A DNA stretch of 59,854 nt from a virus (lineage: Duplodnaviria; Caudoviricetes). A program made the position numbers and the translations under genes. Where the stretch lies: IMG/VR virus record IMGVR_UViG_3300030419_008063, positions 1 through 59,854 of that record; one strand, given 5' to 3'. The notes beneath the pieces were generated by a model, which saw only the letters and a program-made list of their open reading frames with translations, was not told where the DNA came from and searched no databases. Of the stretch, positions 1,079 to 16,855 are shown piece by piece; the first letter of the stretch is position 1; every line of letters starts with the position of its first letter.

Positions 1079-1096
1079 CTTTGCAATTTTGCAAAG
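1079..1096. repeat. inverted repeat CTTTGCAA-TT-TTGCAAAG followed by a C-rich tract
   Basis: Perfect 8-bp arms; CCCCCTCCCCCCCTCTCCTCTCC at about 1107-1129. Confidence 0.6.
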
Positions 1097-1323
1097 TGGG
1101 AGAACACCCCCTCCCCCCCTCTCCTCTCCGGAATGTAAATCCCTAATGATTCCGGGCACTTAGGGCGGCCTAATACACGCACGACACACACAGCAAATTT
1201 TGGGAAAATTGAAAAGGGTAAAAAAAGACCCCCCCTTAAAAAAATACGTAGAAAAAAATGCAAGACTTTGTGCTCCTTTCAAAGAACGAAAACTTCTTCT
1301 CAAAACTATTTATGTTATAAAAC

Positions 1324-1352
1324 ATTATAACAAAAACGTCGAGTTAAGTCAA
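1324..1352 (-). promoter_or_regulatory. sigma70-type promoter with extended -10 pointing into the non-coding junction
   Basis: Minus strand reads TTGACT, 17-bp spacer ending TGT, TATAAT. Confidence 0.75.
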
Positions 1353-1376
1353 GAAAAAAATAATATATTTTTAAAA

Positions 1377-1610
1377 TTATTCAGGCGAAACGGGTGTCCA
1401 CTCAGGCTTTTGAATTTCCGCCGATAGTTCGGCTCCGGTATAAACAGTAAGACCCAAGGCAGCAACCCATGAAGGGTTGTTCCCAATCCATTTCAATATA
1501 GACTTCGAGCCGTCAACAGATTTGCGAACTGTGTCGCGGGAAGTTTGAACGCAATCTTCGATCATTTGATCGGTGATAGCATTTGTGTCAATAATTGTGT
1601 AAGTTCTCAT
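1377..1610 (-). CDS. small tail-fibre-associated protein
   Basis: 77 aa, QTSRDTVRKSVDGSKSILKW; resembles small proteins that follow LamG virion genes in aquatic phages; AAGGA SD. Confidence 0.7.
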   Translation of the reverse strand: MRTYTIIDTNAITDQMIEDCVQTSRDTVRKSVDGSKSILKWIGNNPSWVAALGLTVYTGAELSAEIQKPEWTPVSPE

Positions 1611-1665
1611 TTCAAATTATCCTTTAGCTATATAACACTAGACGGTACCTTCTTCTGCTAATTTT

Positions 1666-2946
1666 CTAGAAGATGTTTTGAAGGCTTCCATCTTCACGGA
1701 TTCTAAAAAGGGCGGGCTCGGTGAATATTAGCGCGTTCGCATCTCCTGCACCGGGTGTAGAGCCCGTTTGGAGAAGCGCTATAGCGGCACCTCCTATGTC
1801 TAACCAATAATACCCTGCCCGTAATTCTGTTGCGTTCGGTGCAGCGGCGAGCGCGCTGGCATTAAAACTGTGCTCTGTTTGTAAGCTGGTTGGGCCGCTG
1901 CCGCCAGCTTCTGATTTAAAGACTCGAAGTGTGGTTTCGGCAAAAGTAACTGGCTGATCAAAAACAACCGGATGCAATGGCTTTTCGTTGTAAGTATTTT
2001 TTTGATAATTTGCGCCAGTTAGTGCAAAGTTGCAATCCATGTGATAGCCGCCATTGAAAAGCTTATCAACTTGGCCGGCATTTAAAGCAAAGTTCCATAC
2101 TGCAAGGTTTGATAAACCACCAGACAAAAGCTGGCGGCTTCCTAAATAATGAACGTCAAGGGCTGCGCCACCAATTCCTAAACATCCAGATCCAGTTTCG
2201 TTTGTTACGGTGCCCGATGGAGCTGTTGCGTTTGACGTAGCAGCAACGGCATTGTTTGTAACTCCCCCAACGGAACTGCTTCCAACGTCATAATACTCTA
2301 CTCTTTCTTGTTTGCCATCTTTATAAAATTTTATACTGCTGTGTGTTCCAGAGCATGCAGTTGTTGCATCTCCATTTGCGGAGCCAGAATATACAACCAC
2401 CCAGTGGTATGGATCAGATGATCCTATTTGAGTACTGGCAGTAACTTGCATTAAATTTCCCGCAGAGTCGCCAACCATAATTGCCGGCTTTCCAGAGCTA
2501 AGCTTCACTCCCCAGCCTCCGAGACGGGCTCCTGTAACGCCATCCCAAAAGCTAATAATATCATTATTGGAAATAATTTGATTATGGCACCAAAAGGAAA
2601 CAGACCATGAATCTGTTTTTGAAAATCTTAGACTATCATCAGCAACACAGCGAATTCTTTCATCCACCCAATCAAAGTGCATCATATATCGATCAGATCC
2701 TGATGCCGGCAACCTAGACGGTATTAGCTTTAGGCCACCACCGTCAAAGGCTCCCCATGTGCCCAAGGACCAATTATCATTTTCCATATTAATACACGTT
2801 CCGGACATGTCATGTGTAAAGTTGCCGGATAGCGAAGCATTTGCAATGGTTTTTGTTCCACCTACAAATCTGGCGTAATCCGAGCCGTCAAAGCGCCAAT
2901 ATGCAACGGGATAAACGTAGGAAGTGTTTTGGTTGAATACAAACAT
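1666..2946 (-). CDS. LamG/concanavalin A-like domain virion protein
   Basis: PVAYWRFD, WSVSFW, YHWVVVY, IKFYKDG, LSNLAVWNFALNAGQVDKLFN are typical LamG-3 elements. Confidence 0.8.
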   Translation of the reverse strand: MFVFNQNTSYVYPVAYWRFDGSDYARFVGGTKTIANASLSGNFTHDMSGTCINMENDNWSLGTWGAFDGGGLKLIPSRLPASGSDRYMMHFDWVDERIRCVADDSLRFSKTDSWSVSFWCHNQIISNNDIISFWDGVTGARLGGWGVKLSSGKPAIMVGDSAGNLMQVTASTQIGSSDPYHWVVVYSGSANGDATTACSGTHSSIKFYKDGKQERVEYYDVGSSSVGGVTNNAVAATSNATAPSGTVTNETGSGCLGIGGAALDVHYLGSRQLLSGGLSNLAVWNFALNAGQVDKLFNGGYHMDCNFALTGANYQKNTYNEKPLHPVVFDQPVTFAETTLRVFKSEAGGSGPTSLQTEHSFNASALAAAPNATELRAGYYWLDIGGAAIALLQTGSTPGAGDANALIFTEPALFRIREDGSLQNIF

Positions 2947-3445: not shown

Positions 3446-3622
3446 CTAAGGGTCTTTTTCTTTTGTGGGATGTCCTTCTATGTTTTCGAAAGCTTTCTGC
3501 TCTTCAGGACCTTTGTACGGCTTGCTGTAAGGGTCCTTGCTTTGTTCGTCCCATGCTAATAAACCCAACGTAAAAAAACATACCACGACTGTTAGGAAAT
3601 AAGCAATATCTAATAAATTCAT
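3446..3622 (-). CDS. 58-aa single-pass membrane protein
   Basis: Manual translation MNLLDIAYFLTVVVCFFTLGLLAWDEQSKDPYSKPYKGPEEQKAFENIEGHPTKEKDP*; AAGGA SD; below the ORF-track cutoff. Confidence 0.6.
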   Translation of the reverse strand: MNLLDIAYFLTVVVCFFTLGLLAWDEQSKDPYSKPYKGPEEQKAFENIEGHPTKEKDP

Positions 3623-3637
3623 TTGTAATCCTTTCGA

Positions 3638-3644
3638 CTATTTA
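3638..3644 (+). promoter_or_regulatory. candidate phage late-promoter motif CTATTTA
   Basis: Intergenic, 30 nt before the ATG at 3675; the same motif recurs before several operon starts. Confidence 0.5.
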
Positions 3645-3674
3645 TATTATAACACACTATTGCGGAGATTGTCA

Positions 3675-3977
3675 ATGAAACTTACAAAAAAAATTTTAGA
3701 AAAAATTATTTTCGAAGCAATTCAAGAAATTAGGGAACGCGAAATGCTTGCGCCTAATCTAAACACTGCTAGTTTATATGCCGCCCTTGTTACTGACGAT
3801 ATTGGGCCGCAATTTGAAAAAGAACAGCTTGCTGCCGGCTTAGAAGAAGTTGTGGTATGGCTTAAGGAAAAAGAAGAGCTAACCAAAATTGCTCAAGAGA
3901 TTGTAGATATTGCTGAAGAAATGTATCCCGATAAATGGGACGAAGTTATAACTGGGCTTTATAAACTTGTAAAATGA
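3675..3977 (+). CDS. hypothetical protein with head-protein-like N-terminus
   Basis: MKLTKKILEKIIFEAIQEIRE; GGAG SD before ATG 3675. Confidence 0.75.
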   Translation: MKLTKKILEKIIFEAIQEIREREMLAPNLNTASLYAALVTDDIGPQFEKEQLAAGLEEVVVWLKEKEELTKIAQEIVDIAEEMYPDKWDEVITGLYKLVK

Positions 3978-3989
3978 TAGGAAGAATAA

Positions 3990-4529
3990 ATGAGAATCGA
4001 CCATATTGCCTACCGCGTAAAAGACCGACACAAAACTGTAAAATTTTTTATTGATACTTTGGGTTATAAAATTCCTGATGATTTGCCTGATGGCTTTGAA
4101 ATAGAATTCGAAGATGGTTCAAAGGCAAAGTGTTATGCTTTGGTCCCTCCGGAAAAAATCAAGGCGGAGGCTAGATACCTAACCGCTCCTTGGGTTTGCG
4201 GAGAATATCACCTGCCTCCTGAACTTTTTATTTCGGACGGAACAGAAGGTTCAATTGTTGGAGAGTGGGTTAAGGGTCGAAACAATGTTGGCGGAATTCA
4301 TCATATCGCCTATCAAGTTGATTCTGTTGAAAAAGTAATGGAAGAGTGGAAAGAAAAAGGCTATGCTGAATTTACAACTGATAAACCTCTTACATGTCCC
4401 GGCTTGGTTCAAGCTTTTACAAAACCTTCTGAACTAACCGGTATTATTTATGAGTTTATTGAACGGGAAGGTCATGGCTTTTGCGAAACCAATGTTAAAG
4501 ATCTGATGAAAAGTACGGAGGGATTATGA
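3990..4529 (+). CDS. VOC-family, 4-hydroxyphenylpyruvate dioxygenase-like protein
   Basis: RIDHIAYRV, GGIHHIAYQVD, LVQAFTKP, YEFIERE-GHGFCETNVKDLM parallel the HPPD C-terminal domain; His-His-Glu metal ligands present. Confidence 0.75.
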   Translation: MRIDHIAYRVKDRHKTVKFFIDTLGYKIPDDLPDGFEIEFEDGSKAKCYALVPPEKIKAEARYLTAPWVCGEYHLPPELFISDGTEGSIVGEWVKGRNNVGGIHHIAYQVDSVEKVMEEWKEKGYAEFTTDKPLTCPGLVQAFTKPSELTGIIYEFIEREGHGFCETNVKDLMKSTEGL

Positions 4530-4802
4530 ATGAAAAAAACTATTTTTTTTATTTTTTTGTTAAAAATTTTCGGCGTCGGGGTTTTGATGGCCGCGCCGAA
4601 GGTTGTAGTCAAAAAAGGAAAGGATCGTATTGTTTATAAAAAAAATACGGAAATAAATTTCAATGATCGAATTGTTGATGGCGAATTGGTTCGTCCTTCT
4701 GGAGCTTATCATCAAAGTCGAGCCCGCGCCAAATTCAACAGCCTCATTATGTATAAGAAAGATTTTTTGAAAGAAATGTTGAAAAAGGCAAAAACTTTAT
4801 AA
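4530..4802 (+). CDS. cglF: adventurous gliding motility protein CglF/GltF homologue
   Basis: Signal peptide followed by DRIVYKKNTEINFND..VDGELVRPSGAY...RAKFNSLI..KKDF..EM.K.A..L, matching the myxobacterial CglF pattern as I recall it; length about 90 aa fits. Confidence 0.8.
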   Translation: MKKTIFFIFLLKIFGVGVLMAAPKVVVKKGKDRIVYKKNTEINFNDRIVDGELVRPSGAYHQSRARAKFNSLIMYKKDFLKEMLKKAKTL

Positions 4803-4809
4803 TTCAATC

Positions 4810-6378
4810 TTATTTTATTTTCTTTTTTAGTTCTTCTACTTCTGCCGATAGTTCTTGTACAGCTTTGACCAATATTGGGATAAGCTCCGCTTTTGCAATA
4901 CTCTTGATTTTGAAACCAAACTTTTCATGCACATGCGGATCTTCAGCAACCATTTCCGGATATACTTGTTCGCAATTTTGAGCACTAAAGCCTATTTTAT
5001 TTAATTTTGTATTATATCGATATAGCGGATTCCATCTGTACTCGATTAGCTCCAAACCGTTGATCGTCTCCAATCCTTTAATTTGAGTTGGATTGATGTC
5101 AGTTTTGATTCTAATGTCCGATCCATTAAAAAGTTCAGGGTTCGCAACTGTTGAGCCGCAGCGAATTCCCCCGCCATCGTCCCCATCACCATCTTGGAAC
5201 TGTAAATAAACACATTTTCCCTGACCTGATGGATTGCCCTCTCCTGCCCTAACTAAGATCCCGGTGTCTTTTTCAGAACCGCCGGCTCCTGAACCGCCGG
5301 GGGCCAACGTTCCGGAATGCCATACGAACAAAGCATTTCCGCCATTATGACCACCCGTATGACCTTTTCCAACGGCAAGAACCATCGCCTCCCCCGAAGA
5401 AGAAACATAAAACAGAGGGCTTCCGGCAGTTTCGGTACAGGTAGCATTTATAAGAAATGAATTATTTCCGCCCGGAATAGGTTTTATAGCACCGCTGACA
5501 AAAAGAGAATTCAAATCGCCACTTGATTTTCCAGCATCGGTAGGGCCGATGATTAACTGCCCTATTTTATCTGCGGCTTCATTGGCATTTACGTAAAGTC
5601 TTCCATGGAGTGCGCCATTTGCAAAAGTGTTTGTTCCGATGGCAACAGAGCCAGAATAATTAATAGTGAAGAGAGGGCTACCATGTGTTTTTCCGCCAAG
5701 GGGCGCGCCGCTACCGGCCCTACGGATTCCGTGTTCTGTTTCATTGTTCTGAATAATGAAAGAATTGTTTACGTGTGGGAAAGACAATCCGAATGAATTT
5801 TTATAAACATCATCCCAATTTGGGCCGAAAGTTCCAACTTCCCACAAGGCCGAACCAGTTCCAGCAAATGCTATCGTATTGGTGGCAAAAGCAGATTCTT
5901 CAGCCTTAATTTTTAAGGGCGAATGATTGACTACCGCTGTGGTCGGAGCAAAAATTTCTAAAGTATGTGCCGAAGAGCCAGATATAAATGCAGAGCCTGT
6001 TATAATATGGTTGACTGATGAAGCTTTTCCGGCGTTTAGATTTCCGCGAATAGTAGCCGAACCTGTAATGCCCAAATCTTTAGCTTCGATCCTTTCAGCA
6101 ATTTGAAGCTTGCCAGAGCCACTTATATCTCCGGCAACCGTCAACACGCTTCCGTCGAAAGTTAAATTTTCTTCCCCATTGAGAGCTTCTGTTGAAGAAA
6201 AAGTTGCAACTCTATTATTAGCTCCATTCTCTACTGAAGATACCGGCGGGGTTACTACAACTGTGTTGCCATTTGAATCTAGACCTAGAAAACTTCCTTT
6301 TCCGGCAACAGAACCGGAAACTACTTCGGAAGAGACAAGATCGATTAAATGTTGTACGCTTTTTATATGTAAAGACAT
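4810..6378 (-). CDS. tail fibre with C-terminal peptidase S74 intramolecular chaperone
   Basis: Gly/Ser-rich body; SDIRIKTDI...IGFSAQN..QVYPEMV...LIPILVKAVQELSAEVEELK. Confidence 0.85.
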   Translation of the reverse strand: MSLHIKSVQHLIDLVSSEVVSGSVAGKGSFLGLDSNGNTVVVTPPVSSVENGANNRVATFSSTEALNGEENLTFDGSVLTVAGDISGSGKLQIAERIEAKDLGITGSATIRGNLNAGKASSVNHIITGSAFISGSSAHTLEIFAPTTAVVNHSPLKIKAEESAFATNTIAFAGTGSALWEVGTFGPNWDDVYKNSFGLSFPHVNNSFIIQNNETEHGIRRAGSGAPLGGKTHGSPLFTINYSGSVAIGTNTFANGALHGRLYVNANEAADKIGQLIIGPTDAGKSSGDLNSLFVSGAIKPIPGGNNSFLINATCTETAGSPLFYVSSSGEAMVLAVGKGHTGGHNGGNALFVWHSGTLAPGGSGAGGSEKDTGILVRAGEGNPSGQGKCVYLQFQDGDGDDGGGIRCGSTVANPELFNGSDIRIKTDINPTQIKGLETINGLELIEYRWNPLYRYNTKLNKIGFSAQNCEQVYPEMVAEDPHVHEKFGFKIKSIAKAELIPILVKAVQELSAEVEELKKKIK

Positions 6379-6411
6379 TTTATTTCTCCTATTATTATTA
6401 AATAGAAAAAT

Positions 6412-6443
6412 AAAAGAAAAAAGGCGGGCCGACGGCCCGCCTT
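6412..6443 (-). terminator. intrinsic terminator
   Basis: 10-bp perfect stem AAGGCGGGCC/GGCCCGCCTT (6421-6443), 3-nt loop, U-rich tail on the minus strand. Confidence 0.8.
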
Positions 6444-6560
6444 AAAAAGAGGATTTTATCCCTCTTCTCTTTTGTGCGACACCATTAGCTGAATAGCAGT
6501 ATCGCACCCTATGGGAGAGCAGCCTTCGGAATCAAATTCGATTCTTTTGTGTGAAGACTT
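6415..6560 (-). ncRNA. candidate structured small RNA
   Basis: Own -10 (TATAAT, 6566-6571 minus) with TTTAAA 17 bp upstream, several stems, no ORF, ends at the terminator. Confidence 0.5.
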
Positions 6561-14403: not shown

Positions 14404-14574
14404 GTGGGAGATGTAATTAGCTTGTTTTTATTTTTATTTTGTTTTTTTTATTATGTCTGTATTCTTGCTATCTTATTCTTATCTTATAATAAACCAGAAC
14501 AAGGCATAGAGAAATATGAAAACTCCTCTAGCCATGTAATGAAAGATATTATAAATAAATATTATTTTTATTAA
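14404..14574 (+). CDS. possible 56-aa membrane protein
   Basis: GTG start 8 nt after a CTATTTA motif; hydrophobic N-terminus VISLFLFLFCFFYYVCILAILFLSY; no SD. Confidence 0.35.
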   Translation: MGDVISLFLFLFCFFYYVCILAILFLSYNKPEQGIEKYENSSSHVMKDIINKYYFY

Positions 14575-15398
14575 TCCCTTTGCGGAATATAATATTCTGA
14601 ATTGTCTTTGTGCGGATCCGGGTTGATACAAAAGCCAAATCCAAACTTTTTCAAATGTTTATTTACAAAATCATTTAGTTGTTTCCATGTGGGAGATATG
14701 GAAATATGGTGAAATCGTCGACTAACAGCCGAAACCATTCCAACTATATAACCATCTGAATTCAAAATTGGAGAACCTGAAGAACCTCCGGCTACTGGAA
14801 TTCCTGTAATTGCCATAGGGAGTCCGCCAAAACTTCTATCTACCATTATCCCCAAATACCTTCCTTCATACATACCAACTAGGTCTTTTCCAAATAATCC
14901 CGTTGGAGCTGCGACATTATAAAGTTTTTCTCCGAGTTTTGGCTCGGTAGAGGAAATGTGAAGCATTGGAATATTAACTTTATCTATAGAAACGATTGCC
15001 AAATCAGATTTTTTATCCGACTTTATTATCTTTTTAAGTTTATATTTTCTCCCGGTTATATCTTGAAATGTGTAAGTGGACACAATTTTCAATTTTCCTT
15101 GACTTTCCAGCATTATTCTTTTGAAATTGCTAATCGGCTCCATCCATATCATGTGTGCGGCTGTCAATATATAACTACTTTTATTTGAATGATAAATTAC
15201 AGAAGCGCTTCCAGTCATCCGACCTTGGTGGACAATAGAGCATTTATTTGTTTTGCATTGAAAAAAAGTTGATTTTTTTTCAACAAATAAAAAAGAATTT
15301 CGTGGAAACACCGTTCGAATTTGTGGCGCAAGAGAAAAGCACCCGCTGAAAATAATAGCGGAAAAAAGGAATAATGACAATAGTACAAATTTTTTCAT
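14571..15398 (-). CDS. trypsin-like (S1) serine protease, lipoprotein
   Basis: Signal with lipobox-like FSGC; LTAAH, SDLA, GGSSGSP catalytic triad; AGGAGG SD. Confidence 0.85.
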   Translation of the reverse strand: MKKFVLLSLFLFSAIIFSGCFSLAPQIRTVFPRNSFLFVEKKSTFFQCKTNKCSIVHQGRMTGSASVIYHSNKSSYILTAAHMIWMEPISNFKRIMLESQGKLKIVSTYTFQDITGRKYKLKKIIKSDKKSDLAIVSIDKVNIPMLHISSTEPKLGEKLYNVAAPTGLFGKDLVGMYEGRYLGIMVDRSFGGLPMAITGIPVAGGSSGSPILNSDGYIVGMVSAVSRRFHHISISPTWKQLNDFVNKHLKKFGFGFCINPDPHKDNSEYYIPQRD

Positions 15399-15544: not shown

Positions 15545-16855
15545 ATGGCAAAAAAAACTTATATCCTTGATACCTCTGTTTATCTCACCGAGGCAGATGC
15601 TATCAGAAACTTTGGAAAAGACGATATAGTAATTCCTTTAAAAGTTTTAGAAGAGATTGATAAGCACAAAACAAGACAAGATGGCGTTGGTGCTCAAGCT
15701 AGAAAAATTATTCGTATTTTAGATGAACTTCGAGGCCAAGGAAATCTTCAAAAAGGTGTGCGATTAGCGAAGGGAAAAGGTTTAGTTCTCACCAAAACTT
15801 ATAATCCTGAGTATCTTCCGGAGGGTTTTGACGAAAGAAGCCCTGATAATCAGATAATATGTGTTGCTTTGACAGAAAAAAGAGAAAAACCAAAAAGAAA
15901 AGTTATATTAGTATCTCGTGATATAAACATGCGAGTAAAATGCGACGCGATAGGGATACAGGCAGAAGATTATCTAGCTAGTAAAATCGTCAGCGACACA
16001 ACTCAGCTTTATACTGGTTTTCGAAAACATTTGGTTGATGATCAAGTTATCGATCATTTTTACAATAACGAAGATGTTTTTATTGAGAAAAAATATGAAA
16101 ATTTTTATCATAATCAGTTCATTATGCTTGTTTCTAACGCAAATGATAAGAAGACATCATTATGCAGATTTAAAGGGCATGCAGTACCCTTAGAACGAAT
16201 ATACGACGGCAAAGAAAAGGAATGGGTTGTCAATCCTCGAAATAAAGAACAAAGTTTTGCTATGGATCTTCTTTTAGATGAAAGTGTCCCTATTGTAACA
16301 CTAATAGGAAGAGCGGGAAGCGGAAAAACTCTTTGTGCGATATCGGCGGGACTGCAACAAGTGTTGGATGAAAGAAGATATAAGAGACTAATAGTATCTA
16401 GACCCGTGCAACCCATGGGGCGAGATATTGGATATCTTCCGGGTACAATGGAAGAAAAAATGAGGCCTTGGCTTGCACCAATTAGAGATAATTTACAATT
16501 TCTCATGGGCGGTGATAAATTTATGATGGAAGAATACATGACTAATGGAACAGTTGAAATAGAGGCTATAACTTATATAAGAGGAAGATCTATTTCTGAT
16601 GCTTATATGATAATTGACGAAGCTCAGAACTTGAGCCGACATGAACTGAAAACAATTATAACTAGGGTTGGAGATAATACTAAAATTATATTAACAGGAG
16701 ATATTGAACAAATTGATAATGCATATGTTGATGAAACTTCAAATGGACTAACTTACGCAATAGAAAAATTTAAAGACTCCCAAATAGCAGGTCATATAAC
16801 TCTAAAAAGAGGCGAAAGAAGTAAAGTTGCAACTCTTGCTGCAAATATATTGTAA
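15545..16855 (+). CDS. phoH: PhoH family ATPase with N-terminal PIN domain
   Basis: ILDTSV...DNQI...SRDINMR (PIN); GRAGSGKT, GYLPG, RGRS, IIDEAQN, GDIEQID. Confidence 0.95.
   Translation: MAKKTYILDTSVYLTEADAIRNFGKDDIVIPLKVLEEIDKHKTRQDGVGAQARKIIRILDELRGQGNLQKGVRLAKGKGLVLTKTYNPEYLPEGFDERSPDNQIICVALTEKREKPKRKVILVSRDINMRVKCDAIGIQAEDYLASKIVSDTTQLYTGFRKHLVDDQVIDHFYNNEDVFIEKKYENFYHNQFIMLVSNANDKKTSLCRFKGHAVPLERIYDGKEKEWVVNPRNKEQSFAMDLLLDESVPIVTLIGRAGSGKTLCAISAGLQQVLDERRYKRLIVSRPVQPMGRDIGYLPGTMEEKMRPWLAPIRDNLQFLMGGDKFMMEEYMTNGTVEIEAITYIRGRSISDAYMIIDEAQNLSRHELKTIITRVGDNTKIILTGDIEQIDNAYVDETSNGLTYAIEKFKDSQIAGHITLKRGERSKVATLAANIL

Follow-up and report, generated by a model that had tools for sequence, protein, structure and literature searches.

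A CglF/GltF-like gene of marine phages suggests that phages plug into the myxobacterial-type gliding machine of their hosts

CglF/GltF proteins and phage proteins acting on envelope machines

The gene cglF of Myxococcus xanthus was reportedly identified by Pathak and Wall in 2012. According to two studies, CglF carries a type I signal sequence, and the phenotype is transferable between cells (PMC3325183, PMC3824092). The same protein was described as GltF (MXAN_4868; NCBIfam NF033764), 89 aa long, with a signal peptide and essential for gliding; a functional GltF-mCherry fusion was located at focal adhesion clusters, and the localisation of GltD depended on GltF (PMC3169522). In this study, the range of gltF was limited to Myxococcales and Bdellovibrionales, and the paralogous Glt-like clusters nfs, G4 and G5 were noted not to serve motility (PMC3169522). 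A published AlphaFold model presents GltF as largely disordered; a strand (residues 94-111) pairs with the TonB-like domain of GltG, and the C-terminal helix (residues 133-147) is inserted in a crevice of GltC, so that GltC is bridged to GltG/GltD; the numbering is that of a 147-residue form of GltF (PMC11761067). Within the Agl-Glt focal-adhesion machine, GltF is an essential and little-understood linker with contacts known from structure prediction only.

Phage proteins acting on motility or receptor machines of the host are Tip of D3112, Aqs1 of DMS3, Llp of T5 and Cor of phi80/N15. Tip and Aqs1 shut down pilus motility and exclude other phages, and the receptor-blocking genes llp of T5 and cor of phi80/N15 lie by tail-fibre genes. 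An auxiliary gene of host origin is psbA of cyanophages. Bacteria with Glt-type machines (Myxococcota, Bdellovibrionota and kin) have, to our knowledge, few known phages. A phage-borne CglF/GltF was not reported in the literature searched, and a 2026 myxophage preprint, as far as covered by a term search, mentioned gliding in general terms and neither a Cgl nor a Glt term.

The CglF/GltF-like gene and its cellular relatives

The window, i.e., the whole stretch of 59,854 nt that was analysed, is a linear virus record of IMG/VR (IMGVR_UViG_3300030419_008063) with a CheckV completeness of 31 %. A preliminary description, made from the letters alone, had assigned a 90-aa ORF with a signal peptide to CglF/GltF by its motifs. 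The ORF was present at exactly the described position (Table 1), and its translation held the quoted motifs as YKKNTEINFND, VDGELVRPSGAY and FNSLI, with DFLKE near the C-terminus. The N-terminus is composed of a charged MKK, an 18-residue hydrophobic stretch (mean Kyte-Doolittle 2.38) and A21-A22; at the equivalent position, the N-termini of the phage copies end in ..VFA or ..VLA ahead of KPK. Cys is absent from the protein, hence there is no lipobox. This composition fits a type I signal peptide. Cleavage would release an exported part of about 69 aa that is basic (pI about 10.2, 18 K+R versus 7 D+E), and as an alternative the N-terminus may act as an uncleaved membrane anchor.

Table 1 Features of the window around the CglF/GltF-like gene and in the remaining record
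Feature	Position	Strand	Remarks
Tail-fibre-like gene	2964-3338		
Gene, 105 aa, first of an apparent three-gene unit	3660..3977	+	no family reaches its cut-off
VOC/glyoxalase-family gene	3990..4529	+	Pfam Glyoxalase_4 1.8e-9, Glyoxalase 2.4e-8
Shine-Dalgarno GGAGGG	4517..4522	+	7 nt ahead of the CglF-like ATG; read in the DNA
CglF/GltF-like gene	4530..4802	+	ORF, 90 aa plus stop, ATG start, TAA end
Signal-peptide-like N-terminus, residues 1-21	4530..4592	+	MKK, hydrophobic core, A21/A22
Conserved beta-strand block, residues 36-54, YKKNTEINFNDRIVDGELV	4635..4691	+	AlphaFold2 strands 37-42 and 48-54
C-terminal segment, residues 71-90, amphipathic helix	4740..4799	+	predicted GltC-docking element
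Tail fibre with C-terminal Peptidase_S74 chaperone domain	4810..6378	-	Pfam PF13884 3.9e-10
Trypsin-like serine protease	14571-15398	-	Trypsin_2 1.9e-12
PhoH-like ATPase fused to an N-terminal PIN domain	15545-16855	+	Pfam PhoH 1.2e-51, PIN_4 1.6e-29
ORF, 228 aa	17219-17905	+	sub-threshold PF07737 metalloprotease-type match (E 4e-4, 20.6 vs 27.4 bits), probably not meaningful
Sugar-biosynthesis island, ~23 kb	19021-42506	+	
ORF, 2,813 aa	46868-55309	+	no Pfam match

Among 18,950 NCBIfam models, NF033764 'adventurous gliding motility protein CglF' was the sole match to the 90-aa protein (E 6.4e-14, 51.8 bits), spanning the profile positions 10-86 of 88, while no model of Pfam or PHROGs matched the ORF. 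A phmmer search of 1.84 billion representative proteins retrieved 215 sequences at E<=1e-3, almost all 72-154 aa long, and NF033764 was the one model matched by all 31 of the 31 aligned best relatives (best E 4.1e-28). Both invariant columns of the family (P56, F79) and 11 of the 12 nearly invariant ones are kept in the window protein; K76 replaces R76. The profile search proposed in the preliminary description thus gave a significant match. The similarity to CglF/GltF is far above chance and, at the level of the sequence, true homology is secure, unlike functional equivalence. By its near full-length profile match and the many related members, the protein belongs to the family in the broad sense. 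It is also a small protein of the expected kind, with 90 aa, a type I-like signal sequence and no lipobox, resembling CglF of M. xanthus with its about 89-90 aa and type I signal sequence (PMC3169522 Table 1 and PMC3325183). A gltD-gltE-gltF-gltG cluster of the G1 type was not found around the gene, which has a VOC-family gene and a tail-fibre gene as neighbours. The curated equivalog cut-off of NF033764 is 90 bits, well above the 51.8 bits of the phage protein. This score and the position of the gene outside any glt cluster, away from gltD/E/G, justify the name 'CglF/GltF-like', but not 'CglF'; homology as claimed earlier is upheld, the CglF identity is not. A role in gliding is likewise not assured, since the family includes copies in Glt-like clusters that do not serve motility, e.g., nfs (PMC3169522).

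Two database proteins, P0106 (540 aa) and P0073 (1374 aa), matched the query in 4-5 stretches. P0106 was considered as a fused CglF and rejected, its repeats share a likeness with the VDGEL..P.G.Y block alone. Judged from the P0106 units, this block appears in CglF as one beta-hairpin unit of the repeat type.

The TGA stop of the VOC/glyoxalase gene directly abuts the ATG of the CglF-like gene, and both genes are likely co-transcribed. On the other side, the tail-fibre gene is convergent and separated by 7 nt; it matched 19 PHROG families, mostly of tail fibres (best 8e-18). A scan for promoters and terminators between 3300 and 7000 remained at chance level (9 versus 8.6 expected and 6 versus 3.8).

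The sole named cellular relative that was reached is L002, one locus obtained in a contig profile search with a closer alignment (A2). It belongs to a 'Deltaproteobacteria bacterium' MAG with 51 % GC, and its CglF-like protein is 48 % identical to the phage protein and scored 52.1 bits with NF033764. The gene run consists of a GltC-like gene, a 1,320-aa TPR gene of the size of GltD, and GltE-like, CglF-like and GltG-like genes. CglF-like genes were present in five of six genomes of this phylum, with 15 matches in all, and a GltG-like gene was located directly downstream of 9 of the 15 copies. The gene order of the L002 type is the G1-cluster arrangement of M. xanthus. In the window, which as a record holds only about 31 % of a genome, neither GltC nor GltG nor an AgmX/PglI C-terminal domain was detected. 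The cellular CglF-like paralogues in Glt-like clusters, e.g., L002 and those of nfs, G4 and G5 of M. xanthus, are the nearest cellular branch in the tree of the family. They differ from the orphan phage copy in their position upstream of gltG (9 of 15), in 2-4 copies per genome and in a GC content of 51-55 % versus 33-37 % for the phage.

Carriage in related marine phages

Tail-fibre genes are located on either side of the CglF-like gene, and farther on there is a baseplate wedge gene of the gp6 type; other genes of the window encode PIN-PhoH and a PD-(D/E)XK nuclease. Copies of the CglF-like protein with 55-69 % identity were found on nine other contigs, eight short metagenome contigs and one IMG/VR record of 60.9 kb. 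Scanning IMG/VR with the single protein revealed no relative, an alignment-based scan revealed one, L025. A tblastn search of 50,697 deposited phage records had no match to the CglF-like protein. Four contigs (L007, L010, L013, L025) share further genes with the window, 40-69 % identical and in similar order, and are therefore phages related to it; synteny was assessed on four of the nine contigs, the other five being too short to judge. The preliminary description had considered the gene as phage-encoded, and the viral record, the tail-fibre and baseplate genes and the copies in related phages confirm this.

The surroundings of the gene vary among these phages. In L007 and L025 a phrog_18251-like gene takes the upstream place of the VOC/glyoxalase gene. 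Five contigs had enough flanking sequence, and adjacency to a tail-fibre gene was observed in the window and not in L007, L010, L013 and L025; the PHROG scan of the neighbours covered these contigs apart from L010 2611-2967 and L025 5033-5317. The gene following the CglF-like gene in L007, at 1091-1858 (+), is endolysin-like (PHROG 181, 3.1e-12), an adjacency seen in this one contig of five. At E<1e-4, the window had no counterpart of this endolysin-like gene.

In a tree of 173 family members, the phage copies formed a single clade of 22 rows (SH-aLRT 96), comprising the window protein, the contig copies and 14 unlabelled database proteins. This clade is nested in a 34-row group (SH-aLRT 93) that holds cellular copies adjoining gltG; the alignment had 90 columns, most deep forks are without resolution and the labelled cellular rows are biased to the six-genome phylum of L002. 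A phylogeny with cellular copies had been suggested before, and it yields one phage clade among cellular copies, a viral orphan branch of the known CglF/GltF family. A search of the ESM Atlas gave as neighbours one viral cluster and clusters of Myxococcota, including one named CglF family protein, and by structure a second viral cluster; these rows scored 0.88, under the bar of 0.9, and are leads only.

The CglF-like gene is under purifying selection in the phage lineage. Pairwise dN/dS was 0.07-0.19 for the six pairs of phage copies with dS<0.6 and did not exceed 0.23 in any of the 19 pairs, out of 28, with unsaturated dS. The GC content of the gene, 33 %, is near the 36.7 % of the window and thus gives no sign of a recent import. 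Near-identical DNA was present in marine metagenomes of several studies. A 5,006-nt contig of another study spans the positions 3600-6500 with 13 differences, none of them within the CglF-like gene. Compared to near-identical contigs of other marine samples, 11 of the 14 listed differences were located at 4933-6118 in the tail-fibre gene; none of the listed differences affects the CglF-like gene. RNA data were not among the sequencing runs listed with near-identical DNA. The CglF-like gene is a long-resident, selected phage gene, neither a contamination nor a recent pick-up.

The phage is marine with 36.7 % GC, and the cellular relatives in hand, with 51-55 % GC, are poor candidates for the host. 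The baseplate protein had its best cultured relatives in a Microcystis myovirus (35 % identity) and in Flavobacterium myoviruses (30 %), too distant to serve as host pointers. Halobacteriovorax has a GC content of about 37 % and is a lead only. The host range assumed in the preliminary description, Myxococcota, Bradymonadia or Bdellovibrionota, fits the range given for gltF in the literature (PMC3169522).

Predicted GltC docking and possible roles in infection

An AlphaFold2 model based on the family alignment was poorly ordered outside two strands and the C-terminal helix (mean pLDDT 64). It has an N-terminal helix at residues 3-16 and a C-terminal helix at residues 79-89, and the last 10-residue block reached a pLDDT of 87. 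The columns invariant in the alignment of the phage clade are mostly within the beta-strand block, and F79 of the C-terminal segment is invariant in the family alignment. The protein lengths and the near gap-free profile match allow a mapping to the published GltF by counting from the C-terminus: the GltF residues 94-111 and 133-147 would correspond to the phage residues 37-54 and 76-90. As modelled, the phage copy resembles M. xanthus GltF, for which disorder outside a strand block and the C-terminal helix is likewise predicted, as is docking in the crevice of GltC (PMC11761067).

A co-fold was calculated with the mature phage protein and two partners of L002, the GltC-like protein and the C-terminal 112 residues of the GltG-like protein; these partners are stand-ins from a probable non-host, with small alignments per chain. 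The score was 0.79 (0.79, 0.73 and 0.81 in the runs) versus 0.00, 0.00 and 0.10 in the three controls; 58 of 80 solved complexes and 2 of 110 mismatched pairs attained this mark, a rough guide for a three-chain job with custom alignments. The runs had at least 56 % of the contacts in common, and the pLDDT of the partner was at least 51. In the confident interface, the phage residues 71-80 and 82-90, centred on F79, are placed against central helices of GltC. When GltC was swapped out, the score dropped to 0.10; the GltG contact has thus no support of its own. No GltG residue is included in the confident contacts, where the absence of a residue from the list is not evidence against a contact. 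The co-fold shows, as a model, that the features behind the GltF-GltC contact predicted in the published work are retained by the phage copy, and this does not imply binding in the cell. A structure prediction with GltC had been put forward in the preliminary description, and in the model the stand-in GltC did dock, at 0.79 versus 0.10 in the best control.

With moderate confidence, we favour an exported linker that docks to GltC and is supplied by the phage to a Glt-type machine of the host. The small, basic and largely disordered protein of the phage-resident CglF/GltF branch, with about 69 aa exported, would be made during infection together with the products of the two upstream genes and reach the periplasm via the Sec pathway. 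It would then insert into the envelope-spanning Glt-type machine as the cellular GltF does: the C-terminal helix would occupy the crevice at the centre of GltC, a TPR protein, and the beta-strand block would probably pair with the TonB-like C-terminal domain of GltG. In this way, the phage might keep or take control of the machine once the host gene expression falls. The logic would be the one known from host proteins with a fast turnover of which phages carry copies. By analogy, psbA of cyanophages is likewise a copy of a host protein under purifying selection, plausibly replacing a component lost after host shut-off, but the phage CglF-like protein would be a structural linker of an envelope machine and not a metabolic or photosynthetic protein. 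The docking to GltC has computational support; export, the pairing with GltG, the timing and the effect on the host we infer. The machine may be sustained, rewired or jammed, and the data speak for sustaining no more than for jamming. Boosting or jamming of gliding, masking of a receptor and passage of the protein to neighbouring cells, put forward in the preliminary description, are conceivable roles.

Ranked second is a decoy for the exclusion of superinfecting phages, a possible explanation that we regard as rather unlikely. The phage copy would compete with the GltF of the host for GltC, and also GltG, and uncouple or lock the outer-membrane platform, so that gliding stops or a receptor or entry component is hidden. 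The end of the CglF-like gene at 7 nt from the convergent tail-fibre gene is reminiscent of the tail-fibre-adjacent genes llp and cor, and the effect would be comparable to the pilus-blocking Tip and Aqs1. Like these proteins, the phage copy is small and may be directed at an envelope machine, and some of them are encoded beside receptor-binding genes; however, Tip, Aqs1, Llp and Cor are not homologues of machine components, whereas the CglF-like protein is a host-derived structural part. The predicted docking to GltC (0.79 versus 0.10) would also suit a decoy, with the GltG contact lacking support of its own. Against it, the adjacency to a tail fibre was limited to one of the five contigs with usable flanks. 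Moreover, the strand block and the GltC-binding helix are both invariant or nearly invariant in the phage clade and under purifying selection, and a pure decoy would not need a constraint beyond the GltC-binding helix. Since both conserved blocks are constrained, a linker competent for bridging is favoured over a one-sided decoy.

Two readings involve the sugar-biosynthesis genes of the window. In the broader one, which we hold for improbable, large marine phages have domesticated the GltF linker, and a Glt/Nfs conveyor together with the ~23-kb island spreads a phage coat, or the movement of the cell is steered or frozen. Slightly less probable still is a glycan partner in the narrow sense, in which the linker recruits a Glt/Nfs-type conveyor to spread a surface glycan specified by the phage. 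Nfs of M. xanthus does spread spore-coat polysaccharide, and at 19.0-42.5 kb the window has the island of ~23 kb. Roles other than motility, e.g., that of nfs, are also served by Glt-like clusters that include gltF-type genes (PMC3169522). However, the CglF-like gene is 14 kb away from the island in a separate transcription unit, and this reading is purely inferential.

A role as lysis accessory is very unlikely. The gene would encode a small exported basic spanin- or holin-like protein acting with an endolysin, and the likeness to CglF would be reduced to a short motif. The N-terminal hydrophobic segment together with the C-terminal helix and the endolysin-like gene next downstream in L007 (PHROG 181, 3.1e-12) point in this direction, but the homology extends over nearly the whole CglF profile (10-86 of 88), the endolysin adjacency was seen in one of five contigs, a lipoprotein partner is absent and the docking to GltC was lost in the co-fold controls. 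Host DNA misassembled into, or flanking, the viral contig is scarcely credible: the first 6 kb have 41 % GC compared to 34-37 % in the remaining window, yet phage genes lie on both sides, syntenic copies occur on L007, L010, L013 and the IMG/VR record L025, the 5-kb contig of another study spans the region, the gene has 33 % GC and glt neighbours are missing.

The GltF-like gene suggests that phages plug into the myxobacterial-type gliding machine of the host, by the favoured reading with a linker that docks to GltC. A diverged copy of GltF kept by phages shows which residues matter, and it could directly serve to probe how GltC, GltF and GltG are connected, be it by complementation or as a dominant-negative form. 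The gene points to bacteria with Glt-type machines as the hosts of a recurrent lineage of marine phages. If the movement or surface exposure of the host is altered, the manipulation by phages extends from pili and flagella to the gliding machinery. If the commandeering of a conveyor applies, a virus would for the first time be seen to encode a structural component of a bacterial machine for gliding or surface transport.

Further genes of the window were recorded (Table 1). The sugar-biosynthesis island includes several glycosyltransferases of the families 1, 2 and 4, a NodU-like carbamoyltransferase, two UDP-glucose/GDP-mannose dehydrogenase-like genes, two NAD epimerase/dehydratases, a DegT aminotransferase, NeuB, a formyltransferase, a PhyH-like dioxygenase and DUF2334. 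An island of this size is unusual in a phage, and it suggests the synthesis of a glycan of the virion or of the host surface. The gene for the trypsin-like serine protease is located on the strand opposite to its neighbours. The first 6 kb, with the tail fibres, had a GC content of 41-42 %, compared to 32-37 % over most of the window. The ORF of 2,813 aa is located just upstream of the baseplate-wedge-like genes, and its product may be a giant tail- or baseplate-associated protein.
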